From a virus (taxonomy: Duplodnaviria; Heunggongvirae; Uroviricota; Caudoviricetes), in the IMG/VR virus record IMGVR_UViG_2541047946_000011: a stretch of 14,368 nucleotides of DNA; one strand, 5' to 3'. The notes under the pieces are model-generated. The model searched no databases and had not been told where the DNA came from. It saw only the letters and a program-made list of their open reading frames with translations. Both the position numbers and the translations under genes were made by a program. Every line of letters begins with the position of its first letter. Position 1 is the first letter of the stretch. Shown here in pieces: positions 4,447-14,368 of the stretch.

Positions 4447-4537
4447 TAGACTGGCCCCCTGAATCACCAGACAACCAATATCACTTATTTAAGTGATAGT
4501 CTTAATACTAGTTTTTAGGCTAGTCATTGGAGAGCAG

Positions 4538-4903
4538 ATGATTGATGTCTTAGGACCGGAGAAACGCAGACGGCGTACCACACAGGAAAAGATCGCAATT
4601 GTTCAGCAGAGCTTTGAACCAGGGATGACGGTCTCCCTCGTTGCCCGGCAACATGGTGTAGCAGCCAGCCAGTTATTTCTCTGGCGTAAGCAATACCAGG
4701 AAGGAAGTCTTACTGCTGTCGCCGCCGGAGAACAGGTTGTTCCTGCCTCTGAACTTGCTGCCGCCATGAAGCAGATTAAAGAACTCCAGCGCCTGCTCGG
4801 CAAGAAAACGATGGAAAATGAACTCCTCAAAGAAGCCGTTGAATATGGACGGGCAAAAAAGTGGATAGCGCACGCGCCCTTATTGCCCGGGGATGGGGAG
4901 TAA
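4538..4903 (+). CDS. insC: IS2 transposase OrfA (InsC)
   Basis: [56 protein letters not shown]... is recognisably IS2 InsC. ATG at 4538 with GGAG at 4529-4532. The track ORF from 4493 includes IS-end sequence upstream of the real start. Confidence 0.9.
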
Positions 4904-5766
4904 GCTTAGTCAGCCGTTGTCTCCGGGTGTCGCGTGCGCAGTTGCACGTCATTCTCAGACGAACCGATGACTGGATGGATGGCCGCCGCAGTCGTCACAC
5001 TGATGATACGGATGTGCTTCTCCGTATACACCATGTTATCGGAGAGCTGCCCACGTATGGTTATCGTCGGGTATGGGCGCTGCTTCGCAGACAGGCAGAA
5101 CTTGATGGTATGCCTGCGATCAATGCCAAACGTGTTTACCGGATCATGCGCCAGAATGCGCTGTTGCTTGAGCGAAAACCTGCTGTACCGCCATCGAAAC
5201 GGGCACATACAGGCAGAGTGGCTGTGAAAGAAAGTAATCAGCGATGGTGCTCTGACGGGTTCGAGTTCCGCTGTGATAACGGAGAAAAACTGCGAGTCAC
5301 GTTCGCGCTGGACTGCTGTGACCGTGAGGCACTGCACTGGGCGGTCACTACGGGCGGCTTCAACAGTGAAACAGTACAGGACGTCATGCTGGGAGCGGTG
5401 GAACGCCGCTTCGGCAACGAGCTTCCGGCGTCTCCAGTAGAGTGGCTGACGGATAATGGTTCATGCTACCGGGCTAATGAAACACGGCAGTTTGCCCGGA
5501 TGTTGGGGCTTGAACCGAAGAGCACGGCGGTGCGGAGTCCGGAGAGTAACGGCATAGCAGAGAGCTTCGTGAAAACGATAAAGCGTGACTACATCAGTGT
5601 CATGCCCAAACCAGACGGGTTAACGGCAGCAAAGAACCTTGCAGAGGCGTTCGAGCATTATAACGAATGGCATCCGCATAGTGCACTGGGTTATCGCTCG
5701 CCACGGGAATATCTACGGCAGCAAGCCAGTAATGGGTTAAGTGATAACAGGTGTCTGGAAATATAG
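4861..5766 (+). CDS. insD: IS2 transposase OrfB (InsD; DDE integrase domain, normally made as an InsCD fusion by -1 frameshift)
   Basis: [77 protein letters not shown]... is recognisably IS2 InsD. It overlaps insC in the -1 frame; slippery AAAAAAG lies at about 4854-4860. Confidence 0.9.
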
Positions 5767-5777
5767 GGGCAAATCCA

Positions 5778-5782: not shown

Positions 5783-6119
5783 CCTCTGACCGAGACCTGA
5801 AAGATAATATTCAGGTGATTGATAATGCAACCAATCGCATCCGTAAGATGAATGGTTATACATACACGCTTAAAGAAAACGGGATGCCTTACGCTGGTGT
5901 TATCGCACAGGAAGCCTTAGAAGCAATTCCAGAGTCCGTAGGCTCTACGATAAAATATAGGGACGGTGGTAGCGGATCTGAAGGCGAAGAAGGTGAACGG
6001 TATTACACTGTAGATTATTCTGGTGTTACTGGCTTGCTTGTTCAGGTAGCCAGAGAGTCAGACGACAGGATAACAGCACTGGAAGAAGAAAACGCAGAAT
6101 TAAGACAAAGATTATCTGC

Positions 6120-6127
6120 AATTGAGG
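6120..6127. repeat. IS66-family target-site duplication, left copy (AATTGAGG)
   Basis: The 8-bp AATTGAGG immediately precedes the GTAAGCGT terminus at 6128 and recurs at 8660-8667 after the opposite terminus. An 8-bp duplication is typical of the IS66 family. Confidence 0.75.
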
Positions 6128-6212
6128 GTAAGCGTAAACTGACCGCCGTATGTAGCCATCAGACGAGAATTGGTAACTTAGACGCCCATCTGATATAGAC
6201 GGACATCTAAGT

Positions 6213-6638
6213 ATGGAATTACAGGACTGGCGAAAAGAACCTCGTAAAAACTATTCGAATGAATTCAAACTTCGTATGGTGGAACTGGCATCACAACCTG
6301 GAGCTTGTGTTGCACAGATTGCACGTGAAAATGGCGTCAATGATAATGTTATTTTCAAATGGCTCAGGCTCTGGCAGAACGAAGGGCGTGTTTCGCGGCG
6401 TCTTCCGGTAACGACCTCTTCTGACACTGGCGTTGAATTATTACCTGTAGAAATAACGCCGGATGAGCAGAAAGAACCTGTGGCGGCCATTGCGCCGTCT
6501 TTATCCACTTCCACTCAGACCAGAGTCAGTGCCAGTTCCTGCAAGGTGGAATTCCGTCACGGTAACATGACGCTGGAAAATCCATCGCCAGAGCTGCTCA
6601 CAGTGTTGATCCGTGAACTGACCGGGAGGGGAAGATGA
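6213..6638 (+). CDS. tnpA: IS66-family accessory protein TnpA (orf1)
   Basis: MELQDWRKEPRKNYSNEFKLRMVELASQPGACVAQIARENGVNDNVIFKWLRLW... is typical IS66 orf1; its stop overlaps the tnpB start. Confidence 0.85.
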   Translation: MELQDWRKEPRKNYSNEFKLRMVELASQPGACVAQIARENGVNDNVIFKWLRLWQNEGRVSRRLPVTTSSDTGVELLPVEITPDEQKEPVAAIAPSLSTSTQTRVSASSCKVEFRHGNMTLENPSPELLTVLIRELTGRGR

Positions 6639-6985
6639 TCTCACTCCCATCAGGTACCCGTATCTGGCTCGTTGCCGGCGTTACCGATATGCGTAAATCC
6701 TTCAACGGACTGGGAGAACAGGTACAACATGTGCTGAATGATAATCCCTTCTCCGGTCACCTGTTTATCTTCCGTGGCCGACGGGGTGACACCGTCAAAA
6801 TTCTTTGGGCTGATGCTGATGGTCTGTGCCTGTTCACCAAACGCCTGGAGGAAGGCCAGTTTATCTGGCCTGCGGTACGTGACGGCAAGGTATCCATTAC
6901 CCGCTCGCAACTGGCAATGCTCCTCGATAAGCTGGACTGGCGTCAGCCAAAAACATCCAGCCGTAACTCACTGACAATGTTGTAA
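6635..6985 (+). CDS. tnpB: IS66-family accessory protein TnpB (orf2)
   Basis: MISLPSGTRIWLVAGVTDMRKSFNGLGEQVQHVLNDNPFSGHLFIFRGRRGDTVKILWADADGLCLFTKRLE... is the highly conserved IS66 orf2. Confidence 0.9.
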   Translation: MISLPSGTRIWLVAGVTDMRKSFNGLGEQVQHVLNDNPFSGHLFIFRGRRGDTVKILWADADGLCLFTKRLEEGQFIWPAVRDGKVSITRSQLAMLLDKLDWRQPKTSSRNSLTML

Positions 6986-7015
6986 AAAACTCCTGACCGC
7001 ATTATAAAAACGGTC

Positions 7016-8629
7016 ATGAGTCAGAAATACCTCATTCGCATCGCAGAGCTGGAAAGGTTGCTCTCTGAGCAGGCTGAAGCCCTCCGTCAGAAAGACCAGC
7101 AACTGAGTCTGGTTGAAGAGACGGAAGCCTTCCTGCGCTCTGCACTGACACGTGCCGAAGAAAAGATCGAAGAAGATGAACGGGAAATAGAACATCTGCG
7201 GGCTCAGATAGAAAAACTGCGCCGGATGCTGTTCGGTACCCGTTCTGAAAAACTGCGTCGTGAAGTTGAACTGGCTGAGGCTCTGCTGAAACAACGTGAA
7301 CAGGACAGCGATCGTTACAGTGGGCGGGAAGACGATCCTCAGGTTCCCCGCCAGTTGCGACAGTCGCGCCATCGTCGTCCGTTACCGGCACACCTTCCCC
7401 GTGAAATACACCGCCTGGAGCCAGAAGAAAGCTGTTGCCCGGAGTGTGGCGGTGAGCTGGATTATCTGGGGGAAGTCAGCGCTGAACAGCTGGAACTGGT
7501 GAGCAGTGCCCTGAAAGTGATCCGCACAGAACGGGTAAAAAAAGCCTGTACAAAATGTGACTGTATTGTTGAAGCACCGGCGCCGTCCCGCCCGATAGAG
7601 CGTGGTATCGCGGGCCCCGGATTACTTGCCCGCGTGTTAACGGGAAAATACTGCGAACATCTGCCACTGTATCGTCAGAGTGAAATCTTTGCCCGCCAGG
7701 GTGTCGAACTGAGCCGGGCCTTACTCTCCAACTGGGTTGACGCGTGCTGCCAGTTAATGACACCGGTGAATGATGCCCTGTACCGTTATGTAATGAACAC
7801 CCGCAAGGTTCACACTGATGACACACCGGTAAAGGTACTGGCACCGGGTCAGAAAAAGGCGAAAACAGGGCGTATCTGGACGTATGTCCGGGATGATCGC
7901 AATGTGGGTTCGTCATCTCCTCCAGCGGTCTGGTTCGCGTACTCGCCGAACCGGCAGGGGAAACACCCGGAGCAACACCTCCGCCCCTTCCGGGGTATCC
8001 TGCAGGCGGATGCGTTCACAGGTTACGACAGGTTGTTCAGTGCAGAACGTGAAGGTGGTGCACTGACAGAAGTTGCGTGCTGGGCCCATGCCCGGCGAAA
8101 AATCCACGATGTATACATCAGCAGCAAAAGTGCGACGGCAGAAGAAGCCCTGAAGCGAATCAGTGAACTGTACGCCATCGAGGATGAAATACGGGGATTA
8201 CCGGAGTCAGAGCGTCTTGCCGTCAGGCAGCAGCGAAGCAAAGTGTTACTGACGTCGCTGCATGAATGGATGGTGGAGAAGAATGGTACGCTGTCGAAAA
8301 AATCCAGACTGGGCGAAGCGTTCAGCTATGTACTGAATCAGTGGGATGCCCTCTGTTATTACAGTGATGACGGTCTGGCGGAGGCGGATAATAATGCTGC
8401 GGAAAGAGCGCTTCGTGCAGTCTGTCTCGGAAAGAAAAACTTTATGTTCTTTGGCAGCGATCACGGCGGCGAGCGTGGAGCACTGTTGTACGGGCTGATC
8501 GGCACCTGCCGTCTGAACGGTATCGATCCGGAAGCGTATCTGCGCCATATCCTGAGCGTACTGCCGGAATGGCCTTCCAACCGAGTTGACGAACTCCTGC
8601 CATGGAACGTAGTACTCACCAATAAATAA
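7016..8629 (+). CDS. tnpC: IS66-family transposase TnpC (orf3)
   Basis: 537 aa with an N-terminal coiled-coil/leucine-zipper region, a CxxC...CxxC zinc-finger-like motif (CPECGGE...CTKCDC) and a DDE-type core, as expected for IS66 transposases. Confidence 0.9.
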   Translation: MSQKYLIRIAELERLLSEQAEALRQKDQQLSLVEETEAFLRSALTRAEEKIEEDEREIEHLRAQIEKLRRMLFGTRSEKLRREVELAEALLKQREQDSDRYSGREDDPQVPRQLRQSRHRRPLPAHLPREIHRLEPEESCCPECGGELDYLGEVSAEQLELVSSALKVIRTERVKKACTKCDCIVEAPAPSRPIERGIAGPGLLARVLTGKYCEHLPLYRQSEIFARQGVELSRALLSNWVDACCQLMTPVNDALYRYVMNTRKVHTDDTPVKVLAPGQKKAKTGRIWTYVRDDRNVGSSSPPAVWFAYSPNRQGKHPEQHLRPFRGILQADAFTGYDRLFSAEREGGALTEVACWAHARRKIHDVYISSKSATAEEALKRISELYAIEDEIRGLPESERLAVRQQRSKVLLTSLHEWMVEKNGTLSKKSRLGEAFSYVLNQWDALCYYSDDGLAEADNNAAERALRAVCLGKKNFMFFGSDHGGERGALLYGLIGTCRLNGIDPEAYLRHILSVLPEWPSNRVDELLPWNVVLTNK

Positions 8630-8659
8630 GCGTCAATACGGTGCTCCGTTGACGCTTAC

Positions 8660-8667
8660 AATTGAGG
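8660..8667. repeat. IS66-family target-site duplication, right copy (AATTGAGG)
   Basis: Identical to 6120-6127. Confidence 0.75.
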
Positions 8668-8693
8668 CGGCGCTTGCGTCTAAATAATATTAA

Positions 8694-8716
8694 GGGGCCG
8701 AGCGCCCCGTTTTATT
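8694..8716 (+). terminator. Putative intrinsic terminator after the reconstructed tail-fiber gene
   Basis: GGGGC (8694-8698), loop CGAGC, GCCCC (8704-8708), then GTTTTATT. Lies directly after the TAA at 8685-8687. Confidence 0.5.
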
Positions 8717-8723
8717 GGGTAGG

Positions 8724-9017
8724 ATGAAAATGGATATAACACCTTTCCTTCATGCGCTTTGTGCTGTGGCTGCGCAGCTACTGATTGGTCTTTTTACCGG
8801 AAACTGGGCTTACGGGGCGATAGCCGGTTGTACGTTCTTCATTGCGCGTGAACACACCCAGGCAGAATATCGCTGGATTGAAATGTTCGGGCATGGCAAG
8901 CGTATGAATATGCCGTGGTGGGGCGGTTTTGATCCTCGTGCATGGGATGTGGCTAGCCTGATGGATTTTGCTGTGCCGGTGGTGGCGTGTCTGCTGGTCT
9001 GGCTGTTGATCCGTTAA
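8724..9017 (+). CDS. Small hypothetical membrane protein (two predicted hydrophobic helices), b-region cargo gene
   Basis: Track ORF 8715-9017; likely start ATG at 8724 or 8730, with AGGA at 8721-8724. Hydrophobic stretches FLHALCAVAAQLLIGLFTG and FAVPVVACLLVWLLI. Function not recognised. Confidence 0.5.
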   Translation: MKMDITPFLHALCAVAAQLLIGLFTGNWAYGAIAGCTFFIAREHTQAEYRWIEMFGHGKRMNMPWWGGFDPRAWDVASLMDFAVPVVACLLVWLLIR

Positions 9018-9057
9018 ACATAAAAAGCTGCAGTATCTTGCCATGACAAGTTACTGC
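9018..9057 (-). terminator. Hairpin with T-run on the minus strand (putative terminator closing the minus-strand cargo genes; convergent with the 8724-9017 gene)
   Basis: GCAGTATCTTG (9030-9040), loop CCATGA, CAAGTTACTGC (9047-9057): an 11-bp stem with one mismatch. On the minus strand the hairpin is followed by AGCTTTTTATGTTT. Confidence 0.45.
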
Positions 9058-9199
9058 GGATGGCTGGTGAACTTCCGATAGTGCGGGTGTTGAATGATTT
9101 CCAGTTGCTACCGATTTTACATATTTTTTGCATGAGAGGATTTGCACCTCCTCCCACCGATCCTCCATGACTTTACGCCACTGTCTCTATGGCTGCTAT

Positions 9200-9214
9200 G
9201 TGCCAGAAGCGGAC
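9200..9214. repeat. 15-bp direct repeat GTGCCAGAAGCGGAC, copy 1 (flanks the 271-aa gene)
   Basis: Exact 15-mer also at 10253-10267; the flanking bases are partially similar (TTCATTAGAT vs ATTACTAAGAT). Confidence 0.7.
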
Positions 9215-9262
9215 TTCATTAGATTCTTTGTTTTTTGTGTTAATATACTTACAATCCCATCA

Positions 9263-10078
9263 TCAACTAACAACCCAATCATCAGATAATATATCACTGA
9301 TATTGAAAATATAGGTATGGTTATTTTTACCATCTGAAATGACGATTTTTTTTAAGTTGAATCTTTCTGATATGATATGCGTTGCAAATTGTGGGATTAT
9401 TAAAAACAAAGCCTCTACCTTACTGATTAATTCAATGTTGACTTTAGGTCTGAAGTTTGCATCATGAACCACTTTGTGCCTAATGTAAAATGCTTCCTCT
9501 ATGAGGGCTCTCCAGTCTGGAAATATATTTTCTATCGATAAACCTTGGGAAATTTGGCCACTCAGACCGCAAGGAGATATATTAGTTGTACATATGTAGT
9601 TTAAAAAACTCTCACCCCACATGCCATTATATGCTTCTTCAAGGTCGTTTAAGTTTTGAAAGTTAAAGCTTTTACTCAATAACTCTGATAGATTTATCTC
9701 AGTGTTTATATTGATAGATGTTTCTGTTCTCATTTTAGATAGTAGTGTTGTAATTCTAGATTCATCAACTGAATGCACGAAAACAAAAACGTCTCTAAAA
9801 TATGTTTCCCAGCAACTGATTAGAAATACAAAATATTGTCGATATGCTGTTTTATAAATATCTATTTTCTTATCTTTCGTTGAAATAAGTGAATGCATAA
9901 GTCGACAATTTTCTGCAAAATTTAGTAGGAAAGACATTGAGAAGTCTTCTATAGCTCCTCTTGATTCGCGAAGAGATAGCAATTCATCAATAATTTTTTT
10001 ATTGATTTTCCTAATCTTTTTCAATTGCATGCCTCGTTTTTGCTTAAGTAAAGTTGATTTTGGAGTTTCGTCAATCAT
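9263..10078 (-). CDS. Hypothetical 271-aa protein, strongly AT-rich; HEPN-like Rx4H motif (possible Abi-like RNase)
   Basis: Long minus-strand ORF, visibly lower GC than its neighbours, Lys/Ile/Asn-rich. Contains ...EEAFYIRHKVVHDANF... (R-x4-H) in the C-terminal half. No other family recognised by eye. Confidence 0.6.
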   Translation of the reverse strand: MIDETPKSTLLKQKRGMQLKKIRKINKKIIDELLSLRESRGAIEDFSMSFLLNFAENCRLMHSLISTKDKKIDIYKTAYRQYFVFLISCWETYFRDVFVFVHSVDESRITTLLSKMRTETSININTEINLSELLSKSFNFQNLNDLEEAYNGMWGESFLNYICTTNISPCGLSGQISQGLSIENIFPDWRALIEEAFYIRHKVVHDANFRPKVNIELISKVEALFLIIPQFATHIISERFNLKKIVISDGKNNHTYIFNISDILSDDWVVS

Positions 10079-10252
10079 GTTATCTTATTAGATTTAAAGA
10101 TAAAGTCACTTTTTGCATAAGCTTTGCGACAAAGATAGCTTTAATGAAAGGCCTTATAGAGCTACTTGGCCATAAAAATTTTTACGATGAATTCGAATTC
10201 AGCGTCCGCTCCTCGCTTAAAGCTGTCCTTGGGCCTAACCTACGATAGCTTC

Positions 10253-10267
10253 GTGCCAGAAGCGGAC
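10253..10267. repeat. 15-bp direct repeat GTGCCAGAAGCGGAC, copy 2
   Basis: Exact copy of 9200-9214, lying inside the 476-bp gap between the 374-aa and 271-aa genes. Confidence 0.7.
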
Positions 10268-10554
10268 ATTACTAAGATAGTAACGTATCAAACGGTGGGA
10301 CAAGTCATGCCAAGTGCGGAAGTGGCTAACAACCATCTGTGTTGTTTAACGGGGAACAGGTCATTCCATTGACCCGATCATTTATGTTGCGCTGACGCTT
10401 AGGTGATAAAAAGCCGCCTATGCCCGTCTATCTTTGGGGATCCGCAATGAAGTTGATTGTGAGGTTATTAGGCTAGGTCTTCTCATTTATAAGTTGTTGA
10501 AGTAGCAACGAATTATCGAGCGATTTATCCCGATTAAATGTCTCACTATTACTC

Positions 10555-11679
10555 TTAATCGGTAAATTCATAGTTTGGCCGCATTGAGAAACGCCACAGA
10601 GGCAGGCCTCCCCCTTTGTAATCATCAGGGATGGTTACCGTGAAAAGTCTGACATTCTGCCGGGTGTCAACTGACCTGATCTGGCTGTCGTGTACAGTCT
10701 GCTCGTTAAAGGCCGACGTGACCAGCGAACTCAGCGTACCTATAAAGTCGAAACCCTGTCTTTTGTAATTTTCGTCGTCTTCCGGGGAAAATGTGTATCG
10801 GATGCTCTCAAGCTGACCATCAGTGAATATTGCCTCCGATCCGGGGCAGAGCCACTCTCCGTAGCGCATCAGATGAAACGCCGTGTTCATTTCAAATTTA
10901 TCCGTTACTTGTCTGTCATTGCAGTAAATTTTAATCTCGCCAATTGTAAAATGGGCGATGCCTTCGGGACTAACTGAAACTTCTTTGGTCCGGTCGGGGA
11001 TAAGCTCAAAAACCAGATCGGGTTCTGTTGCTATCGATAGGTCGCCCAGCAGGTACATCTCACTTTTTGCGAGCGCCGAGGCCGGCGTCAAGGTATGTTC
11101 ACGCTCTAGCTCCTTCATTGAGGAGCGTGCAACCAGCGCCCACCGGCGCAGCATCCTGATGTAGATGGCATAATAAACTGGAATACCATGGAGCTCACCG
11201 TACTTTTCAACCTTATCACTGTACGATTTCTTCAGGCGATAATCGTCAGCCACGTCATCCGCGTTAAAGTTTTTTACTTCCACAAAGATCTGACGGCGAT
11301 CCTTCAGTATAATGCGATAGTCAGGTGCCACCAGATCGGGATCGGCTGACATCAAGTCTCCGGCGTCTTCCTGTTTAAGAAACTGGCAGTGGTTCAGTGC
11401 GGCGCAAACGTGTTTAAATAGGTTTTCTATTCTTTTCCCGTTCAGCAGAATTGGATTCTGATGGGAAGCGATTAATGACGTGGTGACCTTTTGTATAAAG
11501 TCATCCTGGTGCTCGGGGTTTTTAATATCGTAATTATAGATCTGGCCCAACGAGGAAAAAAGCTCAAAGGCTTCAAATCGTTCGGGATTCCTCTTGATTC
11601 TTTCCATTAATGACTCCGCAGCTAATAAATACAACGAAATGAGATCACTTGTTTCTCTGAAGTTACCTGAAAACTGCAT
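10555..11679 (-). CDS. Hypothetical 374-aa protein with a PD-(D/E)xK nuclease-like motif (candidate defense effector)
   Basis: Minus-strand ORF starting 69 bp downstream of the FRG gene stop. Contains ...LVAPDYRIILKDRRQIFVEVKNFNADD..., i.e. a D in a hydrophobic strand followed 15 residues later by E-V-K, the spacing and context of restriction-endonuclease-fold active sites. No strong Shine-Dalgarno before the first ATG, so the start is uncertain. Confidence 0.7.
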   Translation of the reverse strand: MQFSGNFRETSDLISLYLLAAESLMERIKRNPERFEAFELFSSLGQIYNYDIKNPEHQDDFIQKVTTSLIASHQNPILLNGKRIENLFKHVCAALNHCQFLKQEDAGDLMSADPDLVAPDYRIILKDRRQIFVEVKNFNADDVADDYRLKKSYSDKVEKYGELHGIPVYYAIYIRMLRRWALVARSSMKELEREHTLTPASALAKSEMYLLGDLSIATEPDLVFELIPDRTKEVSVSPEGIAHFTIGEIKIYCNDRQVTDKFEMNTAFHLMRYGEWLCPGSEAIFTDGQLESIRYTFSPEDDENYKRQGFDFIGTLSSLVTSAFNEQTVHDSQIRSVDTRQNVRLFTVTIPDDYKGGGLPLWRFSMRPNYEFTD

Positions 11680-11748
11680 TCTGCACGGCGATTAAAGCGG
11701 CTATGGGCCCACGCTGGCACACAGGCGTGCCGTGCGACTAAAGCGCTA

Positions 11749-13119
11749 TCAGATTCGTCCATCGTATAGTTTTGCAATTTCCGTAGCAGCCTTCTCAATG
11801 CCGGGGTACACCGTGCTTTCGTTAATGCCAAGGCGGCTCAGTTGCTGCATCAGATGCTCTTTGTTTCTAATAACAAGCTTTTTGATGTTCAGCGTACTGA
11901 GTCCCGTTTCCGGTAGGTCTACGTTTTCACCAAAGAGCAGGAAAGCGCCTGATTGGGACGAAATACGTGCGTTACTGAGCCTACCTTTGACCACAACAAT
12001 TTTACTTAGGTGGACCGGATCGATGATGCTTTTGAAATAGGACTTTTCATCGCGGATCAGGTGTAGTAGTTGTCCGCACTCTTCAGATTCGTTAAACGCC
12101 GGAATGGTGAGATTAGTTTTCAGGCTGCTTTTGAAACGAGAGGGAAGACGGGAAAGATTGGCTATGCAACTTACGGTATCCGAGTCGAAAAACTTAATTT
12201 CACTTTTGGGCGTCGTCAGAATAATGACGTTCCCGTCAATTTCATGATTATTTTCATCGTGCTTGATTTTAGAGCAGGCAAAATATAGTGCGATCAAGGG
12301 GTTTGTTGATACATCAAGCAGGCGTGTGGGTAGGCCATAGTGTTGCATGCGCACGAGTTTATCTAGCATATACCGATCGTCTTTGAACTCGGCGGGCTGC
12401 ACGGTCAGCAGCTCTGTTATCATGTCCGATTCGTGATGGCGGTAGCGATAGTTACCCTGAGTATCCTTGCGGAACAGTGAGGGTTCCAGTTGGTAGCTGA
12501 TGTCCGAGTGACCGCGGTAAAATACCTCTTCATCGTTTCCCTGTGTATGATCGAGTATCACCTGCAAGTACTGATTGATATTCGCAATGATCTCTAGTTC
12601 TTCATTATTCTCCGGTGCTTCCGCACTCGCTGTTGCGGGCTCAACATTAGAATAGCCTTCAAGGCCTAAAACACGCAGAATCTCATTTACGGAAATCTCT
12701 TTGACCGCCCAGAACGTTCTGTTTAGTCCGAAACTGCCCAGCTCCAGCTCACTTACGTACTCTTTATCGCTGGTTAAGGGCTTGTAGCCGATATCACTGG
12801 TAATCTCATAATCAAACGCTAAAACTTTTTCTCTGTTATACACGGACGTACTTATCTTGCTGATTTTTCCTAAGCGGATGTGGCTGAAATAACCTATTTT
12901 TTCATTATCTTCATCGAATTCAATTTCCGGCTCGGACATAAATACAACGGGCAGTTCCTGAAGAAAATGATAGGTTTTTTCAGTCAGGGGAAGCAATCTG
13001 CTTCTAAGAGACTCTGGCGTGGATTCGAAGAGTCGCGACACAGGGAAAGAGTCATTGCCACTGGGTTCAGAAAAAAAAGTGTAGTATTTGGGGGTTCCGA
13101 CAACGATAAGATTCAGCAT
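11749..13119 (-). CDS. Hypothetical 456-aa protein with an FRG domain (candidate defense sensor/partner), first gene of the minus-strand pair
   Basis: Contains FYRGHSDISYQLEPSLFRK, ...MQHYGLPTRLLDVSTNPLIALYFAC and ...NARISSQSGAFLLFG, which match the FRG-domain hallmark motifs as I remember them. The N-terminal ~190 aa are unrecognised. GAGGA lies 8 nt upstream of the ATG at 13119. Confidence 0.75.
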   Translation of the reverse strand: MLNLIVVGTPKYYTFFSEPSGNDSFPVSRLFESTPESLRSRLLPLTEKTYHFLQELPVVFMSEPEIEFDEDNEKIGYFSHIRLGKISKISTSVYNREKVLAFDYEITSDIGYKPLTSDKEYVSELELGSFGLNRTFWAVKEISVNEILRVLGLEGYSNVEPATASAEAPENNEELEIIANINQYLQVILDHTQGNDEEVFYRGHSDISYQLEPSLFRKDTQGNYRYRHHESDMITELLTVQPAEFKDDRYMLDKLVRMQHYGLPTRLLDVSTNPLIALYFACSKIKHDENNHEIDGNVIILTTPKSEIKFFDSDTVSCIANLSRLPSRFKSSLKTNLTIPAFNESEECGQLLHLIRDEKSYFKSIIDPVHLSKIVVVKGRLSNARISSQSGAFLLFGENVDLPETGLSTLNIKKLVIRNKEHLMQQLSRLGINESTVYPGIEKAATEIAKLYDGRI

Positions 13120-13596
13120 ACTTGCGATCCTCGCATAAGTTAAGTTTCTCTCTCATCATGCCAGACTTGATAATTATTTAAACATCAGCGCTGCTATTTA
13201 TATTTCACACCTTTTTGATCCGAAACGACACTGCCATCGGTAAGCCCGGATGATACATTCTGAAAATTCATCAGAAAAATTTACATCACGCTTTACTCCT
13301 GACGTATATCAGCACTAACGTGCCATTGCGCACGCGCTAGCTATTTAGTAGCGCGTTTCGGCGAAAAGAGATTCGGTAGTCAATGACTATATTTCGCTCA
13401 TAACAGACATTCACTACAGTTGTGGCAGAAAGGTATGCATGCTGGGTGTGGGGAAGTCGTGAAAGAAAAGAAGACTGCTTCGCCGTTTGTCGTCACTGCT
13501 ATCTTCTTATTGCTTATGAAGGTCGTAGTGGGGCACACAAAGCTTTGCACTGGATTGCAAGGCGTTGTGCTTCTCTTGAGTGCGACATGTTTTTAT

Positions 13597-13640
13597 GTCA
13601 AAAAATTAGCGCAAGAAGACAAAAAATCACCTTGCGCTAA
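13597..13640 (-). terminator. Lambda tI/sib-like hairpin terminator in the attR P-arm-proximal region
   Basis: Perfect 10-bp inverted repeat TTAGCGCAAG (13606-13615) / CTTGCGCTAA (13631-13640) with a 15-nt loop. On the minus strand it is followed by TTTTTTGAC. The surrounding sequence (GCGCTAATGCTCTGTTACAGGTCACTAAT...) matches my memory of the lambda sib/tI region. Confidence 0.6.
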
Positions 13641-13809
13641 TGCTCTGTTACAGGTCACTAATATCATCTAAGTAGTTGATTCATAGTGACTGCATATGTT
13701 GTGTTTTGGAGTATTATGCAGTCTATCATTTAGACTAAAACTCTCATAACACACTGATATTAATGATTTTTACTGTTTATCGTTCAGCTTTTTTATACTA
13801 ACTTGAGCG
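13641..13809 (+). other. attR (P arm, core, B'): lambda-type attachment site; core GCTTTTTTATACTAA at 13787-13801
   Basis: The P arm (CTGTTACAGGTCACTAATATCATCTAAGTAGTTGATTCATAGTGACTGCATATGTTGTGTT) closely matches the lambda attP P arm, including arm-type Int-site-like GGTCACTAAT and AGTGACTGCAT. The 15-bp core is identical to lambda. The right flank CTTGAGCGAAACG is the bacterial attB B' side. Confidence 0.85.
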
Positions 13810-13860
13810 AAACGGGAAGGTAAAAAGACAAAAAGTTGTTTTTAATACCTTTAAGTGATA

Positions 13861-13883
13861 CCAGATGGCATTGCGCCATCTGG
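13861..13883 (-). terminator. Perfect 9-bp stem hairpin downstream of ybhB (possible weak terminator or structural element)
   Basis: CCAGATGGC (13861-13869), loop ATTGC, GCCATCTGG (13875-13883). No clean T-run directly after it on either strand, so terminator function is uncertain. Confidence 0.3.
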
Positions 13884-13891
13884 CAGAGTGA

Positions 13892-14368
13892 TTAACTAAA
13901 CATCGCAGTAATCGAGGCGCTTGCCAGAGAGTGGAAATGAACGTTAAACCCGACCATCGCGCCGCTGGCACCTTCATCGACATCAATACGTTCTATATCC
14001 AGCGCGTGAACGGTAAAAATGTAGCGATGAGTTTCGCCTTTCGGCGGTGCTGCGCCATCGTACCCGGTTTTACCAAAGTCGGTACGCGTCTGCAAAACGC
14101 CGTCTGGCATTGCTACCAGACCAGAGCCAAACCCTTGCGGTAATACGCGGGTATCAGCGGGTAAGTTAACAACTACCCAGTGCCACCAGCCGGAGCCGGT
14201 TGGCGCATCCGGGTCGTAGCAGGTGACAACAAAACTTTTCGTTCCCGCAGGAACATCATCCCACGCCAGATGCGGTGAAATATTATCGCCATCGTAACCC
14301 ATGCCGTTAAAGACATGACGATGCGGCAATTTATCGCCATCGCGCAGATCGTTACTGATGAGTTTCAT
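13892..14368 (-). CDS. ybhB: PEBP-family protein YbhB (UPF0098 / kinase-inhibitor-like), host chromosomal gene next to attB-lambda
   Basis: Complete 158-aa minus-strand ORF (MKLISNDLRDGDKLPHRHVFNGMGYDGDNISPHLAWDDVPAGTKSFVVTCYDPDAPTGSGWWHWVVVNLPADTR...). Its start codon is the last three bases of the window. Recognised as E. coli YbhB, whose chromosomal position beside the lambda attachment site agrees with the attR call. Confidence 0.85.
   Translation of the reverse strand: MKLISNDLRDGDKLPHRHVFNGMGYDGDNISPHLAWDDVPAGTKSFVVTCYDPDAPTGSGWWHWVVVNLPADTRVLPQGFGSGLVAMPDGVLQTRTDFGKTGYDGAAPPKGETHRYIFTVHALDIERIDVDEGASGAMVGFNVHFHSLASASITAMFS

Follow-up and report, generated by a model that had tools for sequence, protein, structure and literature searches.

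Organization of the prophage end

The 14,368-nucleotide (nt) window analyzed here (virus record IMGVR_UViG_2541047946_000011; Caudoviricetes) covers the right end of a lambda-like prophage inserted at attB-lambda, running from J and the side tail-fiber gene through a set of cargo genes to the tI/sib hairpin, attR, and ybhB. The subject of this report is the interval 8700-13640, which is 100% identical to phage PhiR11_1 (PV340547.1) and whose nonstructural layout agrees with the original prediction, made from the sequence alone: a small membrane protein gene on the plus strand is followed by three minus-strand genes, encoding a HEPN protein, a nuclease, and an FRG-domain protein, that differ in G+C content (0.315; 0.477 for the nuclease open reading frame [ORF] at 10555-11679; and 0.452). 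The core GCTTTTTTATACTAA lies between a phage P arm and a bacterial B' arm and adjoins ybhB, a PEBP family gene at the very end of the window, indicating that this is the attR of a prophage at attB-lambda. Coordinates of all features are collected in Table 1.

TABLE 1 Features of the window (aa, amino acids; IS, insertion sequence)
Feature	Position	Strand	Remarks
IS2	4447-5777		Inserted in tail-fiber-domain gene
IS66-family element	6128-8658		Three ORFs at 6213-8629; inserted in tail-fiber-domain gene
Terminator-like hairpin	8694-8716	+	GGGGC-CGAGC-GCCCC, then GTTTTATT
Small membrane protein gene	8730-9017 (ORF from 8715)	+	95 aa; phrog_1443
Left hairpin	9026-9053	-	U-rich tail; left boundary of leftward unit
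Anchor A	9054-9214		Noncoding block, lambda 24190-24349, 92% identity; terminal part is junction unit Y1 (9191-9214)
HEPN gene	9263-10078	-	271-aa ORF, RiboL-PSP type, G+C 0.315
Composite junction X'-spacer-Y2	10203-10278	+	~75 nt, between cassettes; Y2 core GTGCCAGAAGCGGAC at 10253-10267
Nuclease gene	10555-11607 (ORF to 11679)	-	350 aa; N-terminal Hjc-like PD-(D/E)xK domain, C-terminal domain without known family
FRG gene	11749-13119	-	456 aa; beta-rich N-terminal domain and C-terminal FRG domain; G+C 0.452
Anchor B	13394-13527		Lambda 27331-27464; begins with junction unit X TCGCTCATAACAGAC, left arm lost here
tI terminator/sib hairpin	13597-13640	-	
attR	13641-13801		Lambda-type P arm and core GCTTTTTTATACTAA at 13787-13801, then bacterial B' arm
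Host gene ybhB (PEBP family)	13892-14368	-	Own hairpin at 13855-13881

A cargo slot between two lambda anchors

Homology to lambda in this region is confined to two blocks, 9054-9214 and 13394-13805 (the latter equivalent to lambda 27331-27742, at 89% identity), so that the intervening 4.2 kb takes the place of ea31-ea59 (3.0 kb) in lambda. The lambda counterpart of anchor A sits between ea47 and ea31, and along this anchor the homology between phages ends right after ...GCGGAC. The lambda b-region slot is now defined to the base, extending from lambda 24349 to 27331.

The occupants of this slot differ from phage to phage. Phage 21 has one unrelated gene between the same anchors and an e14-like element has two, and in HK106 the first 76 bp of anchor A are joined almost directly to the sib region, leaving nearly no cargo. 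Over the whole interval from the tail fiber to att, lambda carries ea47/ea31/ea59, phage 21 carries sitABCD, PhiR70_1 carries an AraC-type regulator, and phage 2B8 carries the type III secretion system effectors NleG, EspM2, and Ibe, which bears out the earlier proposal that the interval holds cargo and shows this cargo to be variable. The slot occupants of lambda itself are Septu-like, since Ea59 matches PADLOC PtuA (E = 5e-184) and Ea31 matches PDC-M01B (E = 6e-113); none of the genes in the window matched PADLOC Septu.

The window and the lambda b region are alike in backbone position, leftward orientation, anchors, tI/sib hairpin, and att core, and the lambda cargo is likewise defense-like (PtuA with an HNH partner). 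They differ in that the cargo of the window is unrelated to ea31 and ea59, is arranged as two cassettes with an internal junction element, and is not accompanied by ea47, the place left of the anchor being taken instead by the small plus-strand membrane protein gene. The exchangeable effector loci, or morons, of lambdoid phages such as 2B8 occupy the same hotspot, but the cargo of the window is defense-like rather than virulence-related. We read 8700-13640 as the accessory b region of an att-lambda prophage in which two probable antiphage cassettes replace ea31-ea59 between shared anchors, and we put the probability of this reading at about 0.65. Taken by itself, the locus is unremarkable, one more example of a familiar variable region.

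Anchor A is conserved over its full length among lambda, phage 21, and other lambdoid phages (84 to 92%), and over the first 76 bp the match extends to Stx and other prophages. It contains a Chi-like sequence, GCTGGTG, matching 7 of 8 positions (9059-9065). A small minus-strand ORF within it (47 aa here and 63 aa in lambda) was rejected as a real gene, as the frames of lambda and phage 21 differ.

Genes of the two cassettes

Cassette 1 (about 9215-10204) encodes a stand-alone HEPN protein, a putative RNase, and cassette 2 (about 10268-13393) encodes an FRG-domain protein followed by a PD-(D/E)xK nuclease. The translated HEPN gene contains the Rx4-6H catalytic motif in the form RHKVVH, and its homologs, which fall into 71 clusters of ~254 aa, mostly match PF18735. 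Homologs are also located in a P2-like prophage, at its S/V hotspot, and the gene occurs by itself, at 82% nucleotide identity, in an unrelated AT-rich contig. The Rx4H motif, the family-level homology, and the location in a phage hotspot are shared with RiboL-PSP-HEPN abortive-infection and toxin proteins, but in contrast to HEPN toxins, the window protein is encoded by a single gene without MNT or any other partner. Homologs in Proteus and Parashewanella adjoin ThsB-TIR genes, the ThsB-type TIR gene lying directly after the HEPN homolog, which is not so in the window; the two may represent a two-gene arrangement.

The nuclease belongs to a small family of 49 clusters, none of which is annotated. 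In an alignment of 31 sequences, K78, E80, D81, P95, D96, E110, V111, and K112 are invariant and E61 is nearly so, such that the E...PD...(D/E)xK signature is present across the family, and the predicted model of the protein has a restriction-endonuclease-like fold (predicted local distance difference test score of 91.7). The FRG domain scores 79.2 bits against PF08867 (cutoff, 25), and the C-terminal 280 residues of this protein match the PADLOC candidate PDC-S15 (E = 7e-99), from which it differs in that the FRG gene of the window clade is often followed by the 350-aa nuclease gene. Published work assigns FRG to the ADP-ribosyltransferase (ART) superfamily as a possible NADase effector (PMC9503650). 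Among structures matching the FRG protein model, modified-base readers (YTH, EVE, ASCH, VcaM4I, and McrB-N) score best, and these matches presumably belong to its N-terminal domain (residues about 1 to 150). Pfam, at E values up to 10, returned nothing for this N-terminal domain or for the C-terminal domain of the nuclease; NCBIfam matched none of the four proteins, and a sequence search against solved structures matched none of the HEPN, nuclease, and FRG proteins.

Homology to PDC-S15/FRG, HEPN, and PD-(D/E)xK nucleases makes a role in defense plausible. The products would then act as independent one- or two-protein antiphage effectors, with the FRG protein sensing nucleic acid through its PUA-like N-terminal domain and using its FRG domain, of the ART superfamily, as the effector, perhaps one that consumes NAD+, and with the nuclease cleaving DNA and the HEPN protein cleaving RNA. 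The locus adds two candidates to the repertoire of defense genes, an unannotated family of 350-aa Hjc-like nucleases and an FRG protein with a predicted modified-base reader domain.

The cargo has moved recently as a unit. The block 9054-13527 recurs, with 99.4% identity, in a different lambdoid prophage inserted at another att site (24 E. coli genomes) and, in 4 further genomes, at att-lambda itself, indicating a recent transfer in one piece, anchors included. The Kluyvera locus shares exactly 10248-13413 with the window, a segment that contains the FRG and nuclease genes. This distribution bears on the original suggestion that several independently acquired modules are stacked here: there are indeed two cassettes with a junction between them, and the gene families occur separately elsewhere, but the three genes are not three recent arrivals, given that the 99.4% block moves whole.

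The FRG and nuclease genes could instead constitute one obligate two-gene sensor/effector system with the HEPN gene separate or, in the extreme form, all three genes could make up one system. The FRG-nuclease layout recurs, in the same order and orientation and with a gap of 100 to 140 bp, in two types of E. coli prophage, Kluyvera, Serratia, and two metagenome contigs (FRG, 74 to 98% identity; nuclease, 79 to 97%), no X/Y junction intervenes between the two genes, and the HEPN, nuclease, and FRG genes travel together in 28 E. coli genomes. Yet FRG homologs at 76 to 79% nucleotide identity stand alone in further E. coli islands, and PDC-S15 is a candidate system of one gene. The nuclease occurs alone in Pectobacterium, Morganella, Pantoea, and Raoultella (at 82 to 83% identity without FRG in Raoultella and Pectobacterium), and its homologs are found at prophage ends, after Gabija-like genes, and adjoining BREX genes. 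FRG, although the sole recurrent neighbor, adjoins the nuclease in just 4 of 31 clustered loci, and among the 24 loci of a genome scan it does so in Kluyvera only. As for the HEPN gene, a complete junction element lies between it and the pair, its G+C content is different, and it occurs alone elsewhere. An obligate system is therefore rather doubtful, and we favor two cassettes, one with HEPN alone and the other with FRG and the nuclease, which are possibly, but not necessarily, a functional pair.

A twin-hairpin junction element bounds the cassettes

The junction element is a twin hairpin composed of units X and Y, each with the stem GTCCGCT/AGCGGAC, and half-copies of it lie on the anchors. 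Within the window, an nhmmer profile of the junction detects one full copy at 10203-10278 (E = 4.7e-11), a Y half at 9181-9222 (E = 1.4e-5), and a weak X half at 13383-13421 (E = 0.06), and it detects the corresponding halves in lambda, whose X half has an E value of 9e-5. The cargo of the window accordingly lies between a Y and an X unit that share one orientation, the X at 13383-13421 being weak. The 15-mer GTGCCAGAAGCGGAC occurs twice in the window (at 9200 and 10253) and in 0 of 200 shuffles; it marks both the end of interphage homology on anchor A and the start of the homology to the Kluyvera FRG and nuclease genes (10248). In Pectobacterium, Serratia, Kluyvera, and a metagenome-assembled genome of Enterobacterales, the nuclease gene is likewise followed by this 15-mer, at a distance of 50 to 110 bp. 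A 476-bp gap (10079-10554) that had no match in other phages is accounted for by the junction element.

An exact-pattern scan of viral contigs for the Y unit returned at least 120 stretches. Among the matches listed, the arm GTCCGCT lies just upstream of most Y copies, giving a 7-bp hairpin, and 76 of 79 copies are intergenic. The X unit, GTCCGCT-TTTCGCTCAYA-GCGGAC, was outside the search pattern yet occurs 67 times in the listed loci, where about 2 would be expected. Cassettes are usually arranged as Y-cargo-X, and neighboring ones are joined as X-(~18 nt)-Y. At least 55 such Y...X cassettes are present in phage contigs, ranging from 343 to 3066 bp (median, 1318 bp), mostly with one to three ORFs and in arrays of up to three. 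Among ten cargo proteins chosen for a Pfam scan as defense-looking, there are TIR, Pycsar-type TIR, HEPN, patatin, reverse-transcriptase, and RelA_SpoT domains; other cassette cargo looks metabolic.

The same units bracket cargo well beyond lambdoid phages. A Serratia defense island has the order Y, helicase gene, Y, nuclease-FRG, X-Y', adjoining BREX genes, and the e14-like element of E. coli (L004) shows the same Y...X bracketing. Phage P2 has Y after gene G and X ahead of FI, such that they bracket Z/fun, and in a GenBank record of the P2-EC30 Z region (AJ512676.1), the annotated "left inverted repeat" and a second repeat are these units; both P2 and P2-EC30 are matched by the same X/Y profile. 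The P2-like Z/fun locus resembles the window in having its cargo between Y (left, after a tail-fiber assembly gene) and X (right), but it belongs to another phage family and another genomic slot. The junction element is thus not new in itself, having been annotated as repeats only in the P2-EC30 record of 2004, which presumably belongs to Nilsson, Karlsson and Haggard-Ljungquist (2004, Mol Biol Evol 21:1), a paper cited in PMC9122126; the junction sequences were not found in the literature searched.

A 58-nt version of the element is present in 3199 of 5426 E. coli genomes. Beneath 40 sampled occurrences there was no annotated feature, except that a weak version overlapped an annotated transposase gene. 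In E. coli O104:H4, a related long-form copy follows nanQ by 30 nt, in a variable part of the chromosome adjoining a truncated yhcG-like gene, showing that the element is not confined to prophages.

Integron cassettes are similar in layout only, having one to three genes per unit, short imperfect-palindrome junctions, and arrays. The ORF list of the window and the annotation of related loci contain no intI, and there is no evidence of excision; the junction sequence is not known to resemble attC. The loop of the Y unit, GTGCCAG, is similar to what we take to be the core of the R64 shufflon, GTGCCAA. A hairpin in the FRG-nuclease intergenic region (minus strand, ~11700-11722; CACGC-CTGTGTGCCA-GCGTG) has a loop resembling that of the Y unit and a different stem.

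The X and Y units might also be signals at the transcript level, such as 3'-end hairpins or protein-binding sites, that are carried along with the cassettes and are not recombination sites. Besides being intergenic in 76 of the 79 cases, the units in the matches listed usually lie 27 to 110 nt after a co-oriented stop codon, and intact composites fold better than shuffles (z = -3.8). Their sequence, loops included, is nevertheless conserved far more than their pairing; they have no U tract, the genes within cassettes face either direction, breakpoints of homology coincide with the units, and no Rfam family matches them (ten element-bearing loci yielded unrelated small RNAs only). Changes in the stems are one-sided, and no compensatory pairs were seen, on which grounds a selected RNA helix was rejected. 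Also dropped was an RNA pseudoknot or attenuator based on a 10-bp long-range stem, TGGCACAGAG/CTCTGTGCCA, which is present in just ~10 of the 107 copies listed. A role as transcript signals is improbable; one-sided stem variants, together with the lack of a recombinase consistently nearby, speak for repeats maintained through descent and exchange rather than for an RNA helix.

We infer that cargo would be exchanged by recombination, either homologous or site specific, at the short conserved X/Y units. A bolder version, possible but tentative, is that X-spacer-Y is a working cassette-exchange site, used by site-specific recombination or by phage single-strand annealing on the ~24-nt linkers, that shuttles defense genes among P2-like phages, lambdoid phages, and Enterobacterales islands, and that FRG with the Hjc-like nuclease is a new two-gene reader of modified nucleic acids. 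Rousset et al. (2022) left the mechanism of exchange at hotspots as speculation, with experiments still needed (PMC9122126), and a 2026 paper in Nucleic Acids Research gave several possible mechanisms without settling on one (PMC13586616). The lambdoid slot, the Z/fun hotspot of P2, and the cassette arrays of many enterobacterial phage contigs are all bounded by the same short repeat. If this repeat mediates exchange, it would offer a testable mechanism for the rapid turnover of phage-borne defense genes.

Terminators and expression of the cargo

The hairpin at the right boundary, placed as originally predicted, has a minus-strand folding energy of -22.9 kcal/mol (z = -5.5), is followed by UUUUUU, and is the same as that of lambda except for one extra A in the loop. 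It is in the sense of int, on the P-arm side at some 150 to 190 bp from the att core, and inside the block that is 89% identical to lambda 27331-27742; judged by its sequence, it is a true homolog of the lambda tI/sib retroregulator. In lambda, sib retroregulation lowers int expression through RNase III processing of read-through transcripts. A search of 8500-14368 against Rfam, at E values up to 1, gave no match.

The other two terminators proposed at the outset fared less well. A left hairpin assigned to 9018-9057 is present at 9026-9053, but its fold on the minus strand is weak (-13.6 kcal/mol; z = -1.4). Its right arm, CTGCGG, forms the first bases of anchor A. Comparison supports this hairpin: one occurs at the same junction in lambda (z = -5.5), in an E. 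coli prophage (L002), and in L004, which keeps the hairpin through a compensatory double change (CCGCAG/CTGCGG to CCGTAG/CTACGG). In the window, the left arm is unlike those of the other phages yet still pairs with the right arm that all have in common. Although weaker than tI/sib, the left hairpin is real. At the tail-fiber terminator, predicted at about 8716, a GC stem of 5 bp (8694-8708) precedes GTTTTATT, immediately past the tail-fiber stop codon (8685-8687, as placed from the annotation of PhiR11_1), but this fold by itself is not significant (z = -0.85).

The tI hairpin faces leftward and in the prophage meets only transcripts from ybhB and attR. Just after the ybhB stop codon, the hairpin at 13855-13881 (-19.4 kcal/mol; z = -5.0), which is probably the terminator of this host gene, already limits read-through into attR ahead of tI, so cargo in the prophage needs promoters of its own. 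In the integrated state, tI would block read-through from ybhB, and weak promoters within the region would drive the cargo. After excision, the cargo would lie downstream of pL-int-att and be read by N-modified polymerase in the manner of the lambda ea genes; in lambda, N-modified pL transcripts read through tI into these genes after excision. Because such read-through is expected here too, the description of the cargo as insulated by terminators holds for the integrated state only. By eye, a weak TTTAAA-16-CATGAT (13182-13155) lies upstream of FRG, and a good Shine-Dalgarno sequence precedes its start codon. A moron in the sense of Juhala et al. 2000 is said to be an inserted gene flanked by its own promoter and terminator; the window offers the terminator-like hairpin at 9026-9053 and, as a promoter, only this weak site.

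An alternative is that the cargo serves the phage's own cycle, being expressed as delayed-early genes from pL through att after excision or infection and functioning in anti-defense, lytic exclusion, or host takeover. The cargo has the same position and leftward orientation as ea31/ea59, downstream of tI/sib, and no clear promoter of its own emerged from a consensus scan. But the same gene families occur in nonphage chromosomal islands adjoining BREX-like and Gabija-like genes, the content of the slot varies among related phages, and the deposited PhiR11_1 genome has an IS2 just upstream of FRG. We regard this alternative as unlikely and retain the interpretation of the cargo as two antiphage cassettes.

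Several observations weigh against that interpretation. The HEPN protein falls just below the Pfam cutoff for PF18735 (E = 7.6e-6; 26.4 bits versus 28.4). PADLOC matched neither the HEPN protein nor the nuclease, nor the membrane protein, and no gene in the window matches an experimentally validated defense system, PDC-S15 being a candidate system. The consensus scan of the minus strand upstream of the three genes detected no sigma-70-like site. In PhiR11_1, whose record is that of a phage genome with E. coli MG1655 as the stated host, the IS2 lies at a position equivalent to 13143-13149 of the window, 24 to 30 bp upstream of the FRG start codon, suggesting that the cargo is dispensable to the phage and may be silent there. 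Finally, the one-sided changes in the X/Y stems fit decaying DNA repeats and give no sign of an active recombination site.

Features to the left of the slot

The left part of the window contains the C terminus of J, the side tail-fiber gene, and a tail-fiber-domain gene interrupted by IS2 and an IS66-family element. This last gene, which encodes 346 aa and is uninterrupted in PhiR11_1, is in pieces here (3771..., 5815-6198, and ...8687). The small plus-strand gene matches phrog_1443 (E = 4e-58); its region is matched by 93 phage records and is conserved after the tail-fiber genes of many lambdoid phages, and the homolog in phage 21 is annotated as a membrane protein with two transmembrane domains.

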